DNA of 28,034 nt from NCBI GenBank assembly GCA_016840405.1, contig JAEOSK010000034.1, positions 1 through 28,034 of the forward strand. Reading direction: 5' to 3'. Below, in pieces: positions 2,978 to 23,775 of the stretch (position 1 is its first letter; the number at the start of each line of letters is the position of its first letter). The position numbers were made by a program, and so were the translations under genes. This stretch comes from Candidatus Hermodarchaeum yapensis (GTDB lineage Archaea; Asgardarchaeota; Hermodarchaeia; Hermodarchaeales; Hermodarchaeaceae). The notes beneath the pieces were generated by a model. The model was given only the letters and a program-made list of their open reading frames with translations, was not told where the DNA came from and did not search any database.

Positions 2978-3052
2978 GCGCTGTTGGTCTAGTGGCTAGG
3001 ACTCCAGCCTGCCACGCTGGGTGCCCGGGTTCAAATCCCGGACAGCGCACCA
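2978..3052 (+). tRNA. tRNA-Gly(GCC), intronless, CCA encoded
   Basis: GCGCTGT TG GTCT AGTGGCTA GGAC T CCAGC CT GCC AC GCTGG GTGC CCGGG TTCAAAT CCCGG ACAGCGC A CCA. Confidence 0.97.
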
Positions 3053-16009: not shown

Positions 16010-16048
16010 CGATGTTCTGACTAACACGTCATGATGACGGTTTGCTGT

Positions 16049-16375
16049 TTACTCTTCTTTTGCTTCCTCTTCTTCCTCGATTTCTTCAAGGGGAATCGGG
16101 GGTGGAGTCGTCAGCATCGTCCAGCCAATCCAAGCCACAATGAAGAGCACCAGCATAATCGCCAGCCACATCGGAATCGCAACGGCGAAATAGGGCTCAA
16201 CCAGAACTGGAATCCAGAAGAAGAATTGCCACCACGGATGAGCGGTTGGATATGCACCAGTTGGATTGACAGAGTAGAACATGAACGGGTAAACAAGAGC
16301 CCAATAGGTGTAATAAAGTACGACTAGAATCGAAAAGAGGAGAATGAGGAAACCATAGATTTTATCTCGTGCCAT
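16049..16375 (-). CDS. two-TM DPM2/PIG-P-like glycosyltransferase accessory protein
   Basis: DKIYGF...YYTYWALVYPF...HPWWQFF...YFAVAIP...GWTMLTTPPP plus acidic tail; motif order matches eukaryotic DPM2 and PIG-P as recalled. Confidence 0.75.
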   Translation of the reverse strand: MARDKIYGFLILLFSILVVLYYTYWALVYPFMFYSVNPTGAYPTAHPWWQFFFWIPVLVEPYFAVAIPMWLAIMLVLFIVAWIGWTMLTTPPPIPLEEIEEEEEAKEE

Positions 16376-16540
16376 AGTAAGTAACCCCTTCTATGAGGGA
16401 ATCTGCGACTGCCTTGCTAATGTCTTGTTATTAAGTCTTACCCACAAGCAGCCCAGATATAACAAAGACAGCCTAACTTTCAAATAAATACTTATGGCCA
16501 CTTTGTTACATTGAGGCTGTGAACGTTGGAACGGTCTAAA

Positions 16541-16705
16541 GTCAACTACCACTGATTGAAATCGGTGGTTTGTACATCACATCCTGCGGTGGTTGGACGC
16601 GGTACGTCTGGGTGGTTGACCGCACCCCGGATCCGCTGCGATCTACGTCAACGGGTCACGGTCACGCCTGCGCGAGAGATGGGCAGGAACCGGGTTGGTG
16701 TGGCT
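16541..16705. ncRNA. stand-alone structured RNA with IS200/IS605 terminal hairpin (HEARO/omega-RNA-like); strand unresolved
   Basis: GC-rich intergenic island. GTCAACTA-CCACTGAT-TGAA-ATCGGTGG-TTTG; GTCAACTACC/GGTGGTTGAC 10-bp closing stem; long hairpin CCGCAC-CCCGG...CCGGG-TTG-GTGTGG; K-loop on the minus strand. Confidence 0.6.
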
Positions 16706-16806: not shown

Positions 16807-17874
16807 ATGAAGGCACTCATTCTAGCTGGAGGCTCTGGTACGCGCTTACGTCCCTTAACGTGTACTCGGTCCAAACAACTCCTTCCGCTCGCCTCCTCCA
16901 CCCTCATTGGATATATGCTCGACCGCCTTCATGATGCTGGCATCTCTGAAGTGATCCTTGCGATAGGACCTGGACTTGACGATCTTCAAGAATCGCTGGG
17001 TGATGGCTCCAATTATAGCATCACTCTGCACTATTCCCTTGAAACACAACCCCTTGGAACAGCAGGGGCAATCAAACATGCAGAACAGCATTTTCGCAAG
17101 GACCAGTCGTTTTTAGCCCTCAACGGTGACATCGTATCCAACATCAACTATACTCAACTCATACAATTCCATGAACAACAACAAGCCATTGCAACAATAG
17201 CCCTTTATCGAGTGGAAGACCCCAGCCGATTTGGCGTCGTTGAAATCGATTCAGAAAGGCGCATCCACAACTTCGTCGAAAAACCCGACCCTCGACACGC
17301 TCCTAGTAATCTAATTAACGCAGGGTGTTACGTCCTCGAGAACACAGTGCTAGAGCATATTCCTGCAAGTCAAGAAGTTTCAATCGAACGGGAAGTTTTT
17401 CCAGCTCTGTGTAAATCTACCAAAGTCTTTGGATGGGAACATCATGGAATTTGGGTCGATACAGGCACACCCGAATCTTTTCTCAAAGCCCAACAAGCAC
17501 TGGTAACAGAAACGGCTCAAATTCCATTAATAGGTGCAAAAACAAAGATTGCCCCATCTGCCATTATTGGGAAAAATGTCACTATCGGTAAACGAGCCAG
17601 AATAGGTCCTAACGCCCATATCAATGATGCAGTGCTGTTTGATGACGTAATCATTGGGGCCGGCGTCACCATCGAGCAATCAATCATTGGACAAGGCGCA
17701 GTGATAGGAAAAGACCTCCAACTCAAAAAACACGTCATCGTCGGGGATGGGGCAATCATTGACTCCGGCGCCAATATTCCTCCGGGCGCGCTCATCTGTC
17801 CTCAATACCATGTGAAAAAAGGTGAAACCCCACCACCCTGCTTTGTGAAGAATTACAAGTCACTCACTGTCTGA
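16807..17874 (+). CDS. NDP-sugar pyrophosphorylase (mannose-1-phosphate guanylyltransferase-like) with left-handed beta-helix domain
   Basis: MKALILAGGSGTRLRPLT, PLGTAGAI, LNGD, FVEKP, INAGCYVL, SIEREVFP, WVDTGTP, hexapeptide repeats. Confidence 0.9.
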   Translation: MKALILAGGSGTRLRPLTCTRSKQLLPLASSTLIGYMLDRLHDAGISEVILAIGPGLDDLQESLGDGSNYSITLHYSLETQPLGTAGAIKHAEQHFRKDQSFLALNGDIVSNINYTQLIQFHEQQQAIATIALYRVEDPSRFGVVEIDSERRIHNFVEKPDPRHAPSNLINAGCYVLENTVLEHIPASQEVSIEREVFPALCKSTKVFGWEHHGIWVDTGTPESFLKAQQALVTETAQIPLIGAKTKIAPSAIIGKNVTIGKRARIGPNAHINDAVLFDDVIIGAGVTIEQSIIGQGAVIGKDLQLKKHVIVGDGAIIDSGANIPPGALICPQYHVKKGETPPPCFVKNYKSLTV

Positions 17875-18540
17875 TGAACTGGAGGGAACCGATGGCGAAA
17901 TCAGGATTCGTACTCGACGATAAGTGGCTATTAGAATACTCGCGAGAGTAATTCCCGTCAGGACAATCGCTGTTGGAACCAACGTAATCCCCCATGGCGT
18001 AAAATTCAATCCAAAGCCAACCAACACCGCCAAAGCAACACTCAACCCACAAGAGAGGGCGAGACGTTCCCAACGATCAATAAATCGTTCAAAGGGAAAC
18101 AAAGCCCGAACAAAAGCAAAACCCGGAACCAAGACCAACAACAATCCACCAAAAATCCAACGTAACACCACTATCGGCCACAGGTCTACAGGAATTAGTA
18201 ACGTAGTAACAAGACCCAAAATCAACAGAACCAGCGTCAACCACAAATCCAAAGCTAGTGTGCTCCCCAGATATTCACACCAGCCCGAAACAGGTGTCAT
18301 CACCGTCTCTTCTGAAGACCCTGGCAGATTAAGAAGCACATACCCCTCTTGGGCTAAGTCTTTGATCATCCGCATCGTGACGCTTTCTGGTACGCCATTT
18401 GTCTTCAACTCCGTGACAACACCTTGAACGGTAGAAAACCGTCGGCTTCGTAGAGCCTCCAGAATTAACTCCCGAACGGTTTCAGGAACATAGGTGTCCT
18501 TTTCACGGAGTAACATAACCGAACCGACCTGACCGACCAT
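17860..18540 (-). CDS. DUF1616-type membrane protein (TM part) with N-terminal winged-helix-like region
   Basis: LRWIFG..LVLVPGFAFVRALFP...ERLALSCGLSVAL...GLNFTPWGI. Confidence 0.85.
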   Translation of the reverse strand: MVGQVGSVMLLREKDTYVPETVRELILEALRSRRFSTVQGVVTELKTNGVPESVTMRMIKDLAQEGYVLLNLPGSSEETVMTPVSGWCEYLGSTLALDLWLTLVLLILGLVTTLLIPVDLWPIVVLRWIFGGLLLVLVPGFAFVRALFPFERFIDRWERLALSCGLSVALAVLVGFGLNFTPWGITLVPTAIVLTGITLASILIATYRRVRILISPSVPSSSSDSE

Positions 18541-18588
18541 TAAGCAAAGATTCTTTTAACCTTTCACTTACCTATTGTTCTGGCGCTT

Positions 18589-19140
18589 ATGCAACGACAT
18601 CCTGCGAACCTAATATTGGCTCTCTTTCTTTTCATGGTCGCTCTAAGCTCGCCTGTGATTGCCTTAACCACTGTCTACTCTTTCAGATATGAACATGTAT
18701 CTTACCAACCCGAAGCGCAAGCACAGCAGGCAATCGATGATGCCCAAAGTGCCATCAACTCTGCCTACACTGACCTGATGCTAGCCGATTCCACAGGGGC
18801 TAGCATTACCGATCTCCTAAGTTCATTGAATGGGGCTATAACCGAGCTTAACCAAGCCCGCTCTGCGTTTAATACCACCGATTACCCCTCCGCAATAACT
18901 CTTGCTGAAAGTGCTCAGGCCACAGCAGATTCAGTCAGCACAGAAGCTTCCGCTCGTCGTTCCGCCACGTTAGTCCAACAACAAGCGCAACTCATCATCA
19001 TTATTGGTGTAGTCATCATCACGGTTTTCATCACCTATTTTGCTCTTACCCGTATTATTCGCTATCAACGAGAGAAAAAGCGGGAGTTCCTACGGATGGA
19101 AATCCGCCTATCCGACGAGGAGGACGGTGAGGATACATGA
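18589..19140 (+). CDS. hypothetical secreted, membrane-anchored helical protein
   Basis: N-terminal signal/TM, Ala-rich helical ectodomain, C-terminal TM and charged tail; stop overlaps the next start (ATGA). Confidence 0.8.
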   Translation: MQRHPANLILALFLFMVALSSPVIALTTVYSFRYEHVSYQPEAQAQQAIDDAQSAINSAYTDLMLADSTGASITDLLSSLNGAITELNQARSAFNTTDYPSAITLAESAQATADSVSTEASARRSATLVQQQAQLIIIIGVVIITVFITYFALTRIIRYQREKKREFLRMEIRLSDEEDGEDT

Positions 19141-19640
19141 AGAAGTACACCCAAACGATTCTCACACTTCTCATGATTGGTCTTGCCGTTGCCACAGGAA
19201 CCTTGCTAGTTTCGGTATGGCTGTTACCACCACCAGAACACACAGCGGTCATTGCGATGTTAAACGAAGACATGGAAGCGGGTCCCTATCCCACCAACGT
19301 CACACAATATTCGAACATCTCGCTCAATATCGAAGTCTACAACTACTTGGGTGTCGTCCAATACTTCTATGTCCGCACCAAACTCGCAAACCAGACCACA
19401 ATGGCAAATGCAACTACACCGTCATCCGCATCAATTATTTTGCAATCTGACAGAATTCTAGCCCATGGTGAAAGATGGGTAATTCCAATTGAACTAAACA
19501 TGACAACCACTGGTACGAATTTCCGTCTCACCTTTGAATTATGGCACTACAACCCGTCCCAAGATGACATAATTTGGGTTCGGAACCAACGTGGCGAAGG
19601 ATTATGGGTTCACCTCCCCCTAAATGTGACCGGACCTTAA
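19137..19640 (+). CDS. DUF1616-type extracellular beta-domain protein
   Basis: N-terminal TM, AGPYPTNVT, VYNYLG..QYFYVRTKL, RLTFELW; several N-x-S/T sequons. Confidence 0.75.
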   Translation: MKKYTQTILTLLMIGLAVATGTLLVSVWLLPPPEHTAVIAMLNEDMEAGPYPTNVTQYSNISLNIEVYNYLGVVQYFYVRTKLANQTTMANATTPSSASIILQSDRILAHGERWVIPIELNMTTTGTNFRLTFELWHYNPSQDDIIWVRNQRGEGLWVHLPLNVTGP

Positions 19641-19683
19641 CCTTACACCAATACCATCTCTAACTCTTGTAGGTGACTGGGTT

Positions 19684-20853
19684 TTGAAACGACGGCTACG
19701 AATTACACAGGTCGTCCATAACTTTCACCCCGTTGTTGGGGGCATTGAAACCTACGCCTACAACCTCGCCAAAGGATTAGTCGATGCTGGACACGAAGTG
19801 AAAGTCTACACGGCACACATCCCTGGGTTCCCCGCATATGAAAACTTGGAAGGTATTCACATTCACCGATTCCATGCAATCGCCCGACCCTTTGGCTATC
19901 CCTTCATCCCTGGGCTCATCCCTGCCCTCACTCGAGATCGCTGTGATGTCCTCCACGCCCACATCAATTCTCCCATGACAGTTGATTTTACCGCTTTTTC
20001 CAGCCGCCTTGTTAACATACCACTCGTCATCACCTATCACGCTGATGCAATCATAAGTGACCTCGCATTGAAAACTCCCGGCTTCCGCCGAATACTCAGC
20101 CAAGTCTATTGGCTCTCCCGACACACCGCCGCAAATATCGCCAAATACCTTATTGTCACCTCCCCCACCTACCTAGAAATATCGCCGTTCTTGCAACGTT
20201 TTCGAGAAAAAACGTCGATAATACCTGCACCCGTAAATCCCTACTATCTAACTCCCATTGAAGACACCCACCAAGCCAAGGCAAACTTGGGCTTCAACAC
20301 CAAAGATCCCTTAATCCTCTTTGTTGGTCGATTAGTTCCATACAAAGGACTGGATACACTTCTTCATGCATTCAAACAAATCCTCTCCCACATACCCACA
20401 ACACAACTAGCCATCGTCGGCTCAGGTCCTCAATTACCAAAGTTGCAAGAAACCTGTCAACAACTGGGAATTAGTAATTCAGTGCATTTTCTTGGCATAC
20501 TCCCTCGGAAAAAACTACGGGATGCCTACACCGCCTGTGATGTTTTTGTTTTACCATCTCGCTCCCGCTCAGAAGCATTCGGCATTGTTCTACTAGAAGC
20601 GATGGCCCGAGCTAAACCTGTTGTCGCCACCAATGTCGGCGGTATCCCCTACGTGGTCAACAATGGAAAAACTGGTCTCCTTGTCCCTCCCTCTGATCAA
20701 ACACACCTCGCTGAAGCTATCACACAACTCCTCTCAAATCCGCAAACCCGTCAGCGCTTAGGTCAAGCAGGTCATCAACGAGTCATCGAACACTTCACTC
20801 GTCCACCTATCACTCGAAAACTCGAAGAACTGTATCTTACCCTCCTCCGGTAA
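19684..20853 (+). CDS. glycosyltransferase family 4 (GT-B, PIG-A-like N terminus)
   Basis: FHPVVGGIETY, GHEVKV, ILFVGRLVPYKG, DVFVLPSRSRSEAFGIVLLEAMA..PVVATNVGG. Confidence 0.93.
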   Translation: MKRRLRITQVVHNFHPVVGGIETYAYNLAKGLVDAGHEVKVYTAHIPGFPAYENLEGIHIHRFHAIARPFGYPFIPGLIPALTRDRCDVLHAHINSPMTVDFTAFSSRLVNIPLVITYHADAIISDLALKTPGFRRILSQVYWLSRHTAANIAKYLIVTSPTYLEISPFLQRFREKTSIIPAPVNPYYLTPIEDTHQAKANLGFNTKDPLILFVGRLVPYKGLDTLLHAFKQILSHIPTTQLAIVGSGPQLPKLQETCQQLGISNSVHFLGILPRKKLRDAYTACDVFVLPSRSRSEAFGIVLLEAMARAKPVVATNVGGIPYVVNNGKTGLLVPPSDQTHLAEAITQLLSNPQTRQRLGQAGHQRVIEHFTRPPITRKLEELYLTLLR

Positions 20854-20881
20854 CACAAATTTTCGATTCACTTCTCTTCGG

Positions 20882-22495
20882 TCAGTCCATCCGTTCAATG
20901 AGCCACGACACAGGTTTCGATAAGGGGTGAAGCACCTCGCTCATGCGAAGCAATGCCGTAACATCTACCGGCTCTAACACACGGGTTTTCCTGAGGCTCC
21001 AAAGATAGAAGATGGAAAGAGGACCGAGTGTAAGAATCATGACCACTTGGAATACCCAGGCTAGCATTCCCACAAGATTCCACAACGTGAGGACAAACCA
21101 TCCGAACATTATCACAATGAGAAAAAGTAGCGCGATCACTACTAACACTCCAATTGTTCGAGGGATGAACCGACCCGTAACCTGGATACCTGTTCGACGC
21201 TGAAACAATAACAGAAAAATCAACAAAAACGGAATACCTGCTAACCAAATCAATGCAACTACGATTTCATGAGCAACAGGACAAAATAACCACAGGAGAA
21301 GAATAATCGACCCAGTCCATGCGGCATACGTCACCAAGACCGCACGGATACTTCCCACACCAATTAGCGTATCCATCATCAAAGCCGTAAGAGGATATAT
21401 CAGAAAACTTCCCGCCATCAACACAAGAAAGGGTGTAGCCACCAAACCTTCAACCGCAAAAAACACAACGAGAACAGGAGCAGCATAAAAGACCACACCA
21501 ACAGCAATGAACGCACTAAACAACAACCCAAGCTTCCACGCCCGATCCATGTATCCCCTAATAGCCGACGATCCTTCCTGTGCCATATCTCCTGACGTCC
21601 GAGGCATTAACACCCGAAACGGCGCCGCTTGTCCTCGTTGTATGTAAACGGCAACACTCATCGCTAAACCTAACCCAGCCAGCATCAAATTGGATGTACG
21701 AAACACATTCGCAATCAAGAGCGGAATATACAGAAACACTGCCCCAAGCAATGCCAACAAAAAAGCTTGTGACGCCGTCGAAATAAACGATCGACGAGTC
21801 GAAGACCAGGACCCAACCGTGAGATTCCTTGGCGGTCTCCTTAATACTACAAAAAGCACGACCACCTCAAAGATAATCGTCACAACAGAAACAACAATGT
21901 TGAACACAATCACTCCCAACAGAGTCATAATTCCCAAAACAAAAATCGTAGTCAACGCGACAAAATACAACCCATGATACAAAGCCATCGCATAAGTAAC
22001 ATACCGCATCCGCTGCAAACCCCGAAAAATACCCTGCAGAACCGTACTTACTGCCGTTAAAGGAACGGTCAACAACGCCAATTGCAAAAACGGCAACACA
22101 CCCACCGGAATTAACACACCTGGTGGAAACCAAGCAAGAACCAAATTAACAAGCACAACAATTCCAAGACTCGCTAACAATGACGCAACCACCGACCAAC
22201 CTATCAACCGATAAAAAGACAAAGATCGACGGTTCACCACCTCGGGTACATGTTTCATTAAAGCGACATCAATACCCATAATCCCAACCGGGATAAGCAC
22301 ACTCACCCACGCAAATACAAGAATGTAAATATAAAATTCGTAAACTGGTACGGTAGGTAATCCACGGACGACTAAAATCGAAGATACCACACCAAAGACA
22401 ATCGCCACAAAGATGGTTACGGCTTCTGCTACAATATTTTGAACAAAAAGCTGTTCCGAATCACTGCGAGCTCGCTTCACTGGTTCTCCAGACAC
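20882..22495 (-). CDS. polysaccharide/oligosaccharide flippase (MOP superfamily, Wzx-like)
   Basis: 537 aa with about 12-14 hydrophobic segments; GIDVALMKHV, LQGIFRGLQRM; between two GT4 genes. Confidence 0.8.
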   Translation of the reverse strand: MSGEPVKRARSDSEQLFVQNIVAEAVTIFVAIVFGVVSSILVVRGLPTVPVYEFYIYILVFAWVSVLIPVGIMGIDVALMKHVPEVVNRRSLSFYRLIGWSVVASLLASLGIVVLVNLVLAWFPPGVLIPVGVLPFLQLALLTVPLTAVSTVLQGIFRGLQRMRYVTYAMALYHGLYFVALTTIFVLGIMTLLGVIVFNIVVSVVTIIFEVVVLFVVLRRPPRNLTVGSWSSTRRSFISTASQAFLLALLGAVFLYIPLLIANVFRTSNLMLAGLGLAMSVAVYIQRGQAAPFRVLMPRTSGDMAQEGSSAIRGYMDRAWKLGLLFSAFIAVGVVFYAAPVLVVFFAVEGLVATPFLVLMAGSFLIYPLTALMMDTLIGVGSIRAVLVTYAAWTGSIILLLWLFCPVAHEIVVALIWLAGIPFLLIFLLLFQRRTGIQVTGRFIPRTIGVLVVIALLFLIVIMFGWFVLTLWNLVGMLAWVFQVVMILTLGPLSIFYLWSLRKTRVLEPVDVTALLRMSEVLHPLSKPVSWLIERMD

Positions 22496-23640
22496 GCTTG
22501 ATACACTCCTTCGGTGAGCTCACTAGTACGCTCCCAGTTATGATGGTCTCTCACATACTGCTGACCGAATTTACCCATCTGCTCAAGTTCCGAACGACGA
22601 GCCTGCCACTCATCCAATGCTTGGGTAATGCAATCCGCTTCAGGTGATTCCAATGTAATACCCCATTGGCTCTGAAGAAACTCCGTGACCCCACCCACAC
22701 CTGTCGCCAACACCGGAGTACCCGCAGCAAGAGCCTCAAGAAGCGTAGTGGGAAGCGTTTCAGCAAAAGACGGAATCACATACAAATCCAACGACGCCAT
22801 AAAACCAGGCATATTCTGGTGGTCCAACTGCCCAAGAAAATGTACATGGCTGAGCCCCGCTTCTTTTACAAACTCTTCCCATTTGTGTTGGGACAAGGCT
22901 CCGCCAGCAACAAGTAGATGCAAGTGTTTAACCGATTTCAGCCGGGTCATCGCTTCCAGTAACTGGTCAAACCCTTTATCCTGCGTTAAAGCTCCCGCAT
23001 ACCCAACAACAAACGCATCCACTGACAACTTCAGTTGATGGCGGAACCGCGCCTCCACCTTAGAATGAAATCGCGTAACATCAACGGCATGCGGCACATA
23101 CACAATACGCTCTACAGGTACCCCCTCTCCAACAAGAATCTCCTCCGATCGGCGCGTCAGACAAATAATACGCGAAAAAGGTCGTCGATACCCCCGTGAT
23201 TCCAAGTAGCGAAATAGCCGAGAACGACCAGGCCCCGGCTCTAAATGTGTCCATTGTTCTTCCACATGCGACAATACTGACGCAATGACAGGCACCCCTA
23301 ATTCAGAACCTGCACGTAGAGCTGCCTCTGAGGCTATCGGCGGCACGGTATGAATAACATTAGGACGCCACTCTCGAGCAAAAGCCCGAACACCAGGCAC
23401 AAAACGTCGTCGAAAAACGTACCGGCTGAGTAATGTGGATAACGAACGGCTCCGAAGATTCAATCGGACAGGTAGAAGCCCCACTGTATTTGGTGAAGCA
23501 AATTCTCCATTCTTAGGAGTGCCACTAAGAATTACCACCTCATGCCCACGTTGAATCAGCCCCTTGCTAAGCTGAGCCCAATACATAGGGCCACCCCCTG
23601 CCTGCTTAGCATGTGATTCAACAACCATCAGAACCTTCAC
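22477..23640 (-). CDS. glycosyltransferase family 4 (GT-B)
   Basis: VKVLMV..GGG, RGHEVVIL, VGYAGAL..DKG, DLYVIPSFAETLPTTLLEALAAGTPVLATGVGG; GTG start at 23640 inferred. Confidence 0.92.
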   Translation of the reverse strand: MKVLMVVESHAKQAGGGPMYWAQLSKGLIQRGHEVVILSGTPKNGEFASPNTVGLLPVRLNLRSRSLSTLLSRYVFRRRFVPGVRAFAREWRPNVIHTVPPIASEAALRAGSELGVPVIASVLSHVEEQWTHLEPGPGRSRLFRYLESRGYRRPFSRIICLTRRSEEILVGEGVPVERIVYVPHAVDVTRFHSKVEARFRHQLKLSVDAFVVGYAGALTQDKGFDQLLEAMTRLKSVKHLHLLVAGGALSQHKWEEFVKEAGLSHVHFLGQLDHQNMPGFMASLDLYVIPSFAETLPTTLLEALAAGTPVLATGVGGVTEFLQSQWGITLESPEADCITQALDEWQARRSELEQMGKFGQQYVRDHHNWERTSELTEGVYQACLENQ

Positions 23641-23775
23641 GAATGCTTCCACCACAAGATTCAACGCACAAGTCAATGCAGAGAATGACAGATACCAGGT
23701 TACGCTATTATTCGGAATTATTATAAAACCTTGGACAAGCCAGTACACCTATAGAATACGATTAGGTGAACAATT

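Follow-up and report, generated by a model that had tools for sequence, protein, structure and literature searches.

A small archaeal membrane protein related in sequence to DPM2 and PIG-P, and its possible role in lipid-sugar transfer

Two essential enzymes of the endoplasmic reticulum (ER) have helper subunits, DPM2 and PIG-P, that are still poorly understood. DPM2 is the regulatory subunit of the eukaryotic type-II dolichol-phosphate-mannose (Dol-P-Man) synthase, and also an accessory subunit of the glycosylphosphatidylinositol-N-acetylglucosamine (GPI-GlcNAc) transferase; PIG-P (Gpi19) is an essential subunit of the latter enzyme. Mutations in PIGP cause human disease (PMC7125958). What, then, would a protein that resembles both be doing in an archaeon? 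The question is raised by a gene for a protein of 108 amino acids (aa), P0001, on a contig of Candidatus Hermodarchaeum yapensis, an Asgard archaeon (JAEOSK010000034.1, positions 1 to 28,034; this whole stretch of 28,034 nucleotides is ‘the window’ in what follows). We put at somewhat better than even (about 55%) the probability that this protein acts, by analogy with its eukaryotic relatives, as a small, non-catalytic accessory subunit of a cytoplasm-facing lipid-sugar transferase, for which a candidate enzyme is proposed below. Its helical hairpin would sit in the cytoplasmic membrane with the N and C ends on the cytoplasmic side, and would stabilize or activate an enzyme that loads a membrane lipid (dolichyl phosphate, for example) with a sugar drawn from a nucleotide sugar of the GDP-mannose or UDP-GlcNAc type. 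The motif WIGWTMLTTPPPIPLEE and the acidic tail that follows it may form the docking surface for the partner, since the end of the second transmembrane (TM) helix and the tail are the most invariant part of the family.

Sequence likeness to DPM2 and PIG-P

Searched with hmmscan against Pfam, the 108-aa protein matches PIG-P (PF08510) at E 1.1e-7 (32.2 bits; residues 5-104 on profile positions 3-85) and DPM2 (PF07297) at E 3.6e-6 (27.6 bits; residues 4-89 on positions 2-71 of 75). Both signatures, which an earlier note on this DNA had proposed from the sequence alone, are thus confirmed as Pfam results over nearly the whole length of the protein; the NCBIfam models give no match to it. The picture of a protein that opens like DPM2 and closes like PIG-P also fits, in that the DPM2 profile stops right after the second TM helix (TM2) and the PIG-P match continues through the tail. 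The DPM2 score passes its curated cut-off (27.3 bits) marginally. The PIG-P cut-off of 39.3 bits is not reached, either by hmmscan or in a genome search (36.6 bits), and the highest PIG-P score among individually scanned family members, 36.5 bits, also falls under it (best E in the member tallies, 5.2e-11).

The relatives carry the argument further. DPM2 is matched at E<=0.01 by 28 of 33 close relatives (best 2.2e-14, 53.9 bits), and PIG-P by 25 of the 33. For the relatives P0049 and P0047 the DPM2 scores are 53.9 and 52.0 bits, about twice the cut-off, over an end-to-end alignment with profile positions 2-71 of 75, and phmmer links them to the 108-aa protein at E 1.1e-12 and 2.5e-14, respectively, with 39-40% identity. 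A six-frame search of the organism’s own genome finds the 108-aa gene as the sole PIG-P match (E 6.2e-9) and as the top DPM2 match; this assembly (2.7 Mb in 77 contigs) is 86% complete, a limit that applies to every absence from it reported here. DPM2 scores above the cut-off were found, among the members scanned individually, only in the Asgard-type alignment set, and the matches of ten loci from outside the Hermod lineage, to PIG-P, DPM2 or Phage_holin_3_6, all lie under the cut-offs.

Could the likeness be no more than the chance composition of any protein with two TM helices? The marginal scores of the 108-aa protein itself would be expected on that account, and Phage_holin_3_6, an unrelated two-TM family, weakly matches 55 of 104 wider family members (best 2.4e-6), so that E-values near 1e-5 are unsafe for hairpins of this kind. 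Fold comparison does not help: Foldseek returned nothing from the PDB at E<=0.001, and a shape search of the ESM Atlas gave the family’s own archaeal clusters together with assorted unrelated hairpins, matches so unspecific that fold searches cannot tell this two-helix hairpin from others. The earlier note had reasoned that the kinship would fall if neither profile nor structural similarity appeared; the first is present, and the Foldseek result does not discriminate. Searches in two further directions were equally bare. Among solved structures, the family profile found only chance-level matches to nucleoside transporters (E>=0.37) and no DPM2 or PIG-P chain, and when the N-terminal 80 residues were searched as a profile, none of 7,757 candidates had a source with a eukaryotic name. 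Chance likeness is nevertheless largely refuted, and we consider it very improbable. The 108-aa protein has no Phage_holin_3_6 match at E<=10, and the holin scores stay below that family’s own cut-off (28.4) and, in most individually scanned members, below the PIG-P or DPM2 scores (2 of the 10 loci match the holin only), and we treat the holin likeness as an artefact of composition or shape. Because relatives about 40% identical to it reach 52-54 bits on DPM2, because the matches to both families recur in 28 and 25 of 33 relatives, and because it is the sole PIG-P match in its genome, we accept on profile evidence that the protein is homologous to the DPM2/PIG-P superfamily. An independent published tree, considered below, agrees.

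The strings quoted in the earlier note (DKIYGFLILLFSILVVLYYTYWALVYPF, HPWWQFF, YFAVAIPMWL and GWTMLTTPPP), as well as the EEIEEEEEAKEE tail, all occur in the minus-strand translation of the gene (Table 1). A plus-strand open reading frame (ORF) at 16031-16327 (98 aa) is an antisense shadow: the homologues (57 clusters by phmmer) match only the minus-strand frame. Hydropathy gives two hydrophobic stretches, at about residues 1-31 and 51-91, and the AlphaFold2 (AF2) model, built from a 104-sequence alignment, places helices at residues 2-34 and 61-89 and a tail helix at 96-107, with a mean predicted local distance difference test score (pLDDT) of 85.9. The density of lysine and arginine (K/R) over the 104 family members is high at the N terminus (0.22) and in the tail (0.14) and low in the loop (0.04), which indicates a predicted hairpin with both ends in the cytoplasm (N-in/C-in). 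Eukaryotic DPM2 has the same arrangement. With its ends so placed, the protein would face the side of the membrane on which DPM1 and PIG-A act.

Conservation is strongest not in the helices themselves, but at the cytoplasmic end of TM2 and in the residues just after it. Across three family alignments, W82, I83, G84, T86, T89, T90, P91-P93, P95, E97 and E98 are invariant or nearly so, and the 108-aa protein carries the family signature complete: an N-terminal M-x-[KR]-D-[KQ]-x2-G, whose aspartate (D4) sits just upstream of TM helix 1, two TM helices, and WIGWTM(A/L)TTPPPxPxEExE. Residues 88-108 include nine acidic residues and one basic one. The loop between the helices is some 15 residues longer in the Hermod clade than in short-loop relatives.

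Upstream of the gene, the stretch conserved among Hermod relatives ends abruptly. Even for the two closest (L011 and L012, 89-94% identical over 16381-16540), blastn similarity stops at the edge of a 165-nucleotide GC-rich island (16541-16705) in the divergent intergenic region, which is not found in the relatives, has no Rfam family at E<=1, and has the look of an insertion peculiar to this genome. Rfam gave no match near the gene when the intergenic region was searched, and the sole match in the window at the gathering threshold is a tRNA gene at 2978-3049 (RF00005, 64.8 bits).

Table 1. The 108-aa gene, its predicted parts and its neighbours (positions in the window)
Feature	Position	Strand	Description and basis
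CDS, 108-aa DPM2/PIG-P-like two-TM protein (P0001)	16049..16375	-	ORF list and translation; ATG start, TAA stop; stop codon within the interval
Predicted TM helix 1, ~residues 6-31	16283..16360	-	Invariant G8; YYTYW motif with invariant Y22 and T23; alignment, hydropathy, AF2
Predicted extracytoplasmic loop, ~residues 32-60	16196..16282	-	Aromatic-rich; pLDDT 58-69; low K/R density
Predicted TM helix 2, ~residues 61-89	16109..16195	-	PYFAVAIP at start; P68 invariant; AF2 helix
Near-invariant motif WIGWTMLTTPPPIPLEE, residues 82-98	16082..16132	-	Cytoplasmic end of TM2; alignments
Predicted acidic cytoplasmic tail helix, residues 96-108	16052..16090	-	AF2 helix 96-107; pLDDT ~90
Conserved upstream stretch, probable promoter and 5' leader	16381..16540	-	blastn against Hermod relatives (L011-L024), 75-94% identity
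GMPPB-like mannose-1-phosphate guanylyltransferase (NTP_transferase + LbH), divergent neighbour	16807..17874	+	Pfam; NCBIfam man1P_GTase, 293 bits, below cut-off
Adjoining glycan-assembly cluster	17860..23748	.	Two DUF1616 genes, unknown 183-aa gene, GT4, flippase-like gene, second GT4; Pfam
First GT4	19684-20853		Within the glycan-assembly cluster
Polysacc_synt flippase-like gene	20882-22495		Within the glycan-assembly cluster
Second GT4	22477-23748		Within the glycan-assembly cluster

Distribution and origin of the family

How widely is such a protein distributed? A profile of close relatives, searched against 1.84 billion representatives at E<=1e-3, gathers a family of at least 472 clusters at 50% identity. 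The best 150 of these are mostly 60-160 aa long, and have the near-invariant WIGWTM(A/L)TTPPPxPxEExE after TM2, so the suspicion that the TTPPP-EEIE tail resembles a small, uncharacterized archaeal family was well founded. Homologues of the 108-aa protein come from metagenome-assembled genomes (MAGs) labelled Hermodarchaeota or Promethearchaeota, which places its bearer among the Asgard archaea. When one genome per prokaryotic species was scanned, the motif-bearing gene was found in at least 545 species genomes, the best 80 of which include MAGs labelled Hermod, Thor, Odin, Hel and Baldr together with many from Bathyarchaeia, Bathycorpusculum, Nitrososphaerota and Thermoproteota. Most members of the set that reaches beyond the Asgard archaea, scanned individually, still match PIG-P or DPM2, weakly. 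Among sampled Asgard genomes, the gene occurs in 85 of 101, and in 39 of the 41 of high quality, mostly in one copy. We therefore regard the family as a small membrane protein of the archaeal core set, and not as one specific to Asgard archaea.

Variants of the usual arrangement occur. A few Asgard genomes (G009, G015, G036, G038, G048, G054 and G086) carry two or three family copies, which implies that lineage-specific duplications exist. One member, P0094 (289 aa), continues at its C terminus into a soluble domain of some 190 residues that has helix-hairpin-helix-like repeats; this fusion partner might hint at the binding target of the tail. Several members (P0083, P0100 and P0102) bear the JGI/IMG name ‘predicted DNA-binding transcriptional regulator’, and one Atlas cluster is called ‘Transcriptional regulator family protein’. 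Nothing in the two-TM sequences supports these names, and they are probably misannotations.

The earlier note had gone on to propose a pre-duplication ancestor of DPM2 and PIG-P and a candidate eukaryotic signature protein. The first part of that proposal fits. In a tree of PF07297, published in a 2025 Nature paper on the dating of gene duplications, Asgard sequences are sister to a duplication into DPM2 and PIGP that preceded the last eukaryotic common ancestor and is dated to 2.88-2.06 Ga (PMC12872463). Since the archaeal gene is mostly single-copy and its product matches both profiles, and given this tree, the protein fits a pre-duplication relative, close to the unduplicated ancestor. The second part of the proposal does not hold: the family is common in archaea other than Asgard (Bathyarchaeia, Nitrososphaerota), and a protein so widespread outside that group does not qualify as a eukaryotic signature protein as the term is normally used.

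Nor is the kinship itself new. Precomputed PF07297 and PF08510 labels already stand on these archaeal proteins in a large protein collection; Atlas clusters from Thorarchaeota and Bathyarchaeota are automatically named ‘Dolichol phosphate-mannose biosynthesis regulatory protein’; and feature searches of the Atlas return archaeal clusters only, one of them automatically named as a DPM regulatory protein. With the Pfam annotation, the automatic names and the 2025 paper (PMC12872463), the relationship is already on record, and because of this the 108-aa gene yields no new principle. Our search of the literature found no functional study of the archaeal family.

Genomic neighbours, candidate partners and rival functions

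What the protein does must be approached through its company. On one flank of the gene lie genes for L10, P1, NIP7, an NOP2/Sun methyltransferase and HypC. On the other is a divergent gene for a GMPPB-like enzyme, which among solved structures matches human GMPPB best (7d72_K, E 4.9e-48, full length), followed by the glycan-assembly cluster of Table 1. Synteny with Hermod relatives extends over the DUF1616 genes, the 183-aa unknown gene and the first GT4, and we take this cluster as no more than context for the 108-aa protein.

Elsewhere, ORFs were called and clustered at 72 loci, and nine further contexts were inspected. The GMPPB-like NTP_transferase adjoins the gene in about 14 Hermod loci. 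In the Thor lineage a GlmM equivalog of the archaeal type (TIGR03990, 562 bits) stands one to three genes away (+1 to +3), along with an Acyl_transf_3 gene; in Bathyarchaeia, AdoHcyase lies upstream, and an NTP_transferase is adjacent in three loci; in Loki, PfkB and mannose-6-P isomerase stand at +2 and +3. GlmS is near the gene in two further lineages. In the P0068 lineage DegT lies upstream, and a same-strand NTP_transferase follows after 19 bp; another lineage has an NDP-sugar epimerase/dehydratase 68 bp downstream, and another has, within 8 kb, an island of GT2, GT4 and DUF1616 genes. In several lineages, in short, genes for the making of GDP-mannose or UDP-GlcNAc precursors recur within one to three genes of the family gene. 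As separate observations, one Loki-type contig has an OST3/OST6 homologue about 4 kb upstream of the gene (L107:835-1371), and the ribosomal uS19-uL22-uS3 operon is only a few genes away from the family gene in Thor, Loki and other lineages, with an intervening sugar-phosphate or nucleotide-sugar gene that differs from lineage to lineage.

These neighbours invite a different assignment, in which the hairpin would anchor or organize the nucleotide-sugar-making enzyme itself (GMPPB-like or another NTP_transferase) at the membrane, so that the activated sugar would be made beside the membrane transferases. In three lineages no gene adjoins more often than an NTP_transferase (divergent in Hermod, at the three Bathyarchaeia loci, and on the same strand in the P0068 lineage). 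Elsewhere the place is taken by GlmM, GlmS, mannose-6-P isomerase or an epimerase, a variety more readily explained by a pathway in common than by a single constant binding partner, and we know of no precedent for such anchoring among the eukaryotic relatives. We rate this assignment as decidedly unlikely.

The ribosomal neighbours point another way: to a housekeeping small membrane protein outside glycosylation (e.g. an accessory of a translocon, an insertase or some other membrane complex), which would share its ancestry with DPM2 and PIG-P, the eukaryotic function having come later. A gene that is near-universal and mostly single-copy in Asgard archaea, that lies among ribosomal or ribosome-biogenesis genes both here and, near the uS19 operon, in Thor, Loki and others, that has no conserved glycosyltransferase neighbour, and whose own genome yields none of the other eukaryotic subunits (DPM3 and PIG-A, -C, -H and -Q), would suit this role. 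Against it, sugar-activation genes recur beside the family gene where the other neighbours differ, and the 108-aa protein has no meaningful match in Pfam or NCBIfam to a subunit of a translocon or insertase. We think a housekeeping role of this kind improbable.

An accessory subunit needs an enzyme, and the own genome offers few. Only two GT2 genes are present, both encoding proteins of about 230 aa (L092:1483-2178 on contig C3; L093:1471-2178 on contig C28). The first product, P0242 (229 aa), has no hydrophobic or TM segment. Its best solved relative is the Dol-P-Man synthase of P. furiosus (5mlz, E 9e-21), aligned over residues 23-240 of 374, the catalytic part; the alignment leaves out the C-terminal third, which reportedly contains four TM helices. 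The NCBIfam models nearest to P0242 are PpgS, AglJ and dolichyl-phosphate hexose transferase, and the length of P0242-like GT2s is steady, 221-230 aa, in MAGs labelled Hermod, Thor, Odin, Hod, Baldr and Jord. Eukaryotic DPM1 requires membrane subunits (PMC7728079), and P0242, TM-less and resembling DPM1, is a natural candidate for the partner. Directly upstream of its gene is a 92-aa zinc-ribbon ORF (CPKC...CGNC; L092:1145-1423), which we take, by eye, to resemble an Elf1-type transcription elongation factor.

In a more specific form of the proposal, meant for this lineage, the 108-aa protein would be the membrane half of a dolichyl-phosphate hexose synthase whose other half is P0242, a forerunner of DPM1-DPM2/DPM3 in which the acidic tail serves as the tether that DPM3 provides in eukaryotes. 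The scarcity of GT2 genes, the TM-less P0242 and its alignment to the catalytic part of the P. furiosus enzyme, the constant length across Asgard lineages, the GDP-mannose enzyme gene beside the small-protein gene, and the direct binding of yeast Dpm2 to Dpm1 (PMC7728079) all speak for it. The two genes lie on different contigs (C20 for the small protein, C3 for P0242), and the Asgard families f6, f9, f16, f3 and f23 have the small protein and lack a P0242-like gene at E 1e-30, some of them with only one GT2. This particular pairing is, in our view, unlikely.

Several results weigh against an accessory-subunit role altogether, beside the holin cross-matches and unspecific fold searches already described. 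The own genome yielded no DPM3 (PF08285; best E 0.34) and no significant match to the PIG-A signature (PF08288), PIG-C (PF06432), PIG-Q (PF05024) or PIG-H (PF10181). P0242-like GT2s occur in 56 of the 101 Asgard genomes at E 1e-30, about 31 of them with >=48% identity, set against 85 for the small protein, and Thor-like genomes carry the small protein with a single weak or different GT2. No glycosyltransferase is conserved as an immediate neighbour across the lineages surveyed. The category ‘sugar activation’ was set up after the neighbours had been inspected, and the lineages may not be fully independent, as an ancestral position near the uS19 operon is possibly common to them.

Two versions of the proposal were set aside on this evidence. 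P0242, with a distribution narrower than that of the small protein and missing from whole Asgard families that have it, cannot be the universal partner, and a universal GT2 partner is rejected with it. A GPI-GlcNAc transferase module is not supported, within the 86% of the genome at hand, given the absent matches to the PIG-A signature, PIG-C, PIG-Q and PIG-H, and the generic character of the neighbouring GT4: by Pfam, the two nearby GT4 genes are without the PIGA domain, and the first has generic GT4 relatives (BshA, PimA/B, MshA).

Taken to its furthest, the accessory-subunit proposal suggests a history. The ancestral DPM2/PIG-P would have been a pan-archaeal small membrane protein whose TTPPPxPxEExE docking tail recruits soluble, TM-less sugar-lipid synthases (P0242 being one example) or nucleotide-sugar enzymes to the membrane; archaea would have had a multi-subunit Dol-P-sugar synthase; and PIG-P would have retained part of the tail, and DPM2 lost it, with DPM3 as a later replacement tether. 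We offer this scheme tentatively and regard it, as a whole, as rather doubtful.

A simpler archaeal relative, single-copy and near-universal in Asgard archaea, could reveal what hairpins of this kind do, and could throw light on how, in the course of eukaryogenesis, Dol-P-Man synthase and GPI-GlcNAc transferase came to have their several subunits. The additions made here are modest: the family reaches well past the Asgard archaea, it is most conserved in a predicted cytoplasmic tail that lies beyond the reach of the DPM2 profile, none of the eukaryotic partner subunits sought turned up in this genome, and genes of sugar activation recur beside it. The TM-less GT2 that resembles Dol-P-Man synthases is a testable candidate partner in the Hermod lineage, not a universal one.

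Comparison with known systems

How does the 108-aa protein compare with the systems that it recalls? Like DPM2, it is a small two-TM hairpin with predicted cytoplasmic ends and a near-full-length profile match, and its gene adjoins that of an enzyme that forms GDP-mannose. DPM2 acts together with DPM3 and a TM-less catalytic subunit, DPM1; it raises the activity of Dol-P-Man synthase and of the GPI-GlcNAc transferase and stabilizes partner subunits. Unlike DPM2, the archaeal protein is 108 aa long, with a longer, aromatic loop and a conserved, acidic TTPPPxPxEExE tail past the end of the DPM2 profile, and DPM3 was not found in the archaeal genome. PIG-P gives its best Pfam E-value, and the tail region is PIG-P-like rather than DPM2-like, because the PIG-P alignment takes in the motif after TM2 as well as the tail. 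A further point in common is the presence of UDP-GlcNAc-pathway neighbours (GlmM, GlmS) in Thor and other lineages. The differences from PIG-P are the score below the cut-off (32.2-36.6 against 39.3), the last third of the PIG-P profile, which is unmatched, and the companion subunits PIG-C, PIG-Q, PIG-H and the PIG-A signature, not found in the archaeal genome.

The yeast Dpm2 homologue Yil102c-A, a two-TM protein of 75 aa, binds the Dol-P-Man synthase Dpm1 and the PIG-A homologue directly in the membrane (PMC7728079). It resembles the archaeal protein in its two TM helices, and is a precedent for working without DPM3; the comparison falls short in that yeast Dpm1 has a TM helix of its own, and the candidate archaeal GT2 has none. 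Phage_holin_3_6 (PF07332) is a two-TM hairpin of similar size, to which the 108-aa protein itself gives no match. Closest of all is the archaeal TTPPP-tail family, whose other members are automatically named ‘hypothetical’, ‘DPM regulatory protein’ or ‘predicted transcriptional regulator’, and of which the 108-aa protein is a full member.

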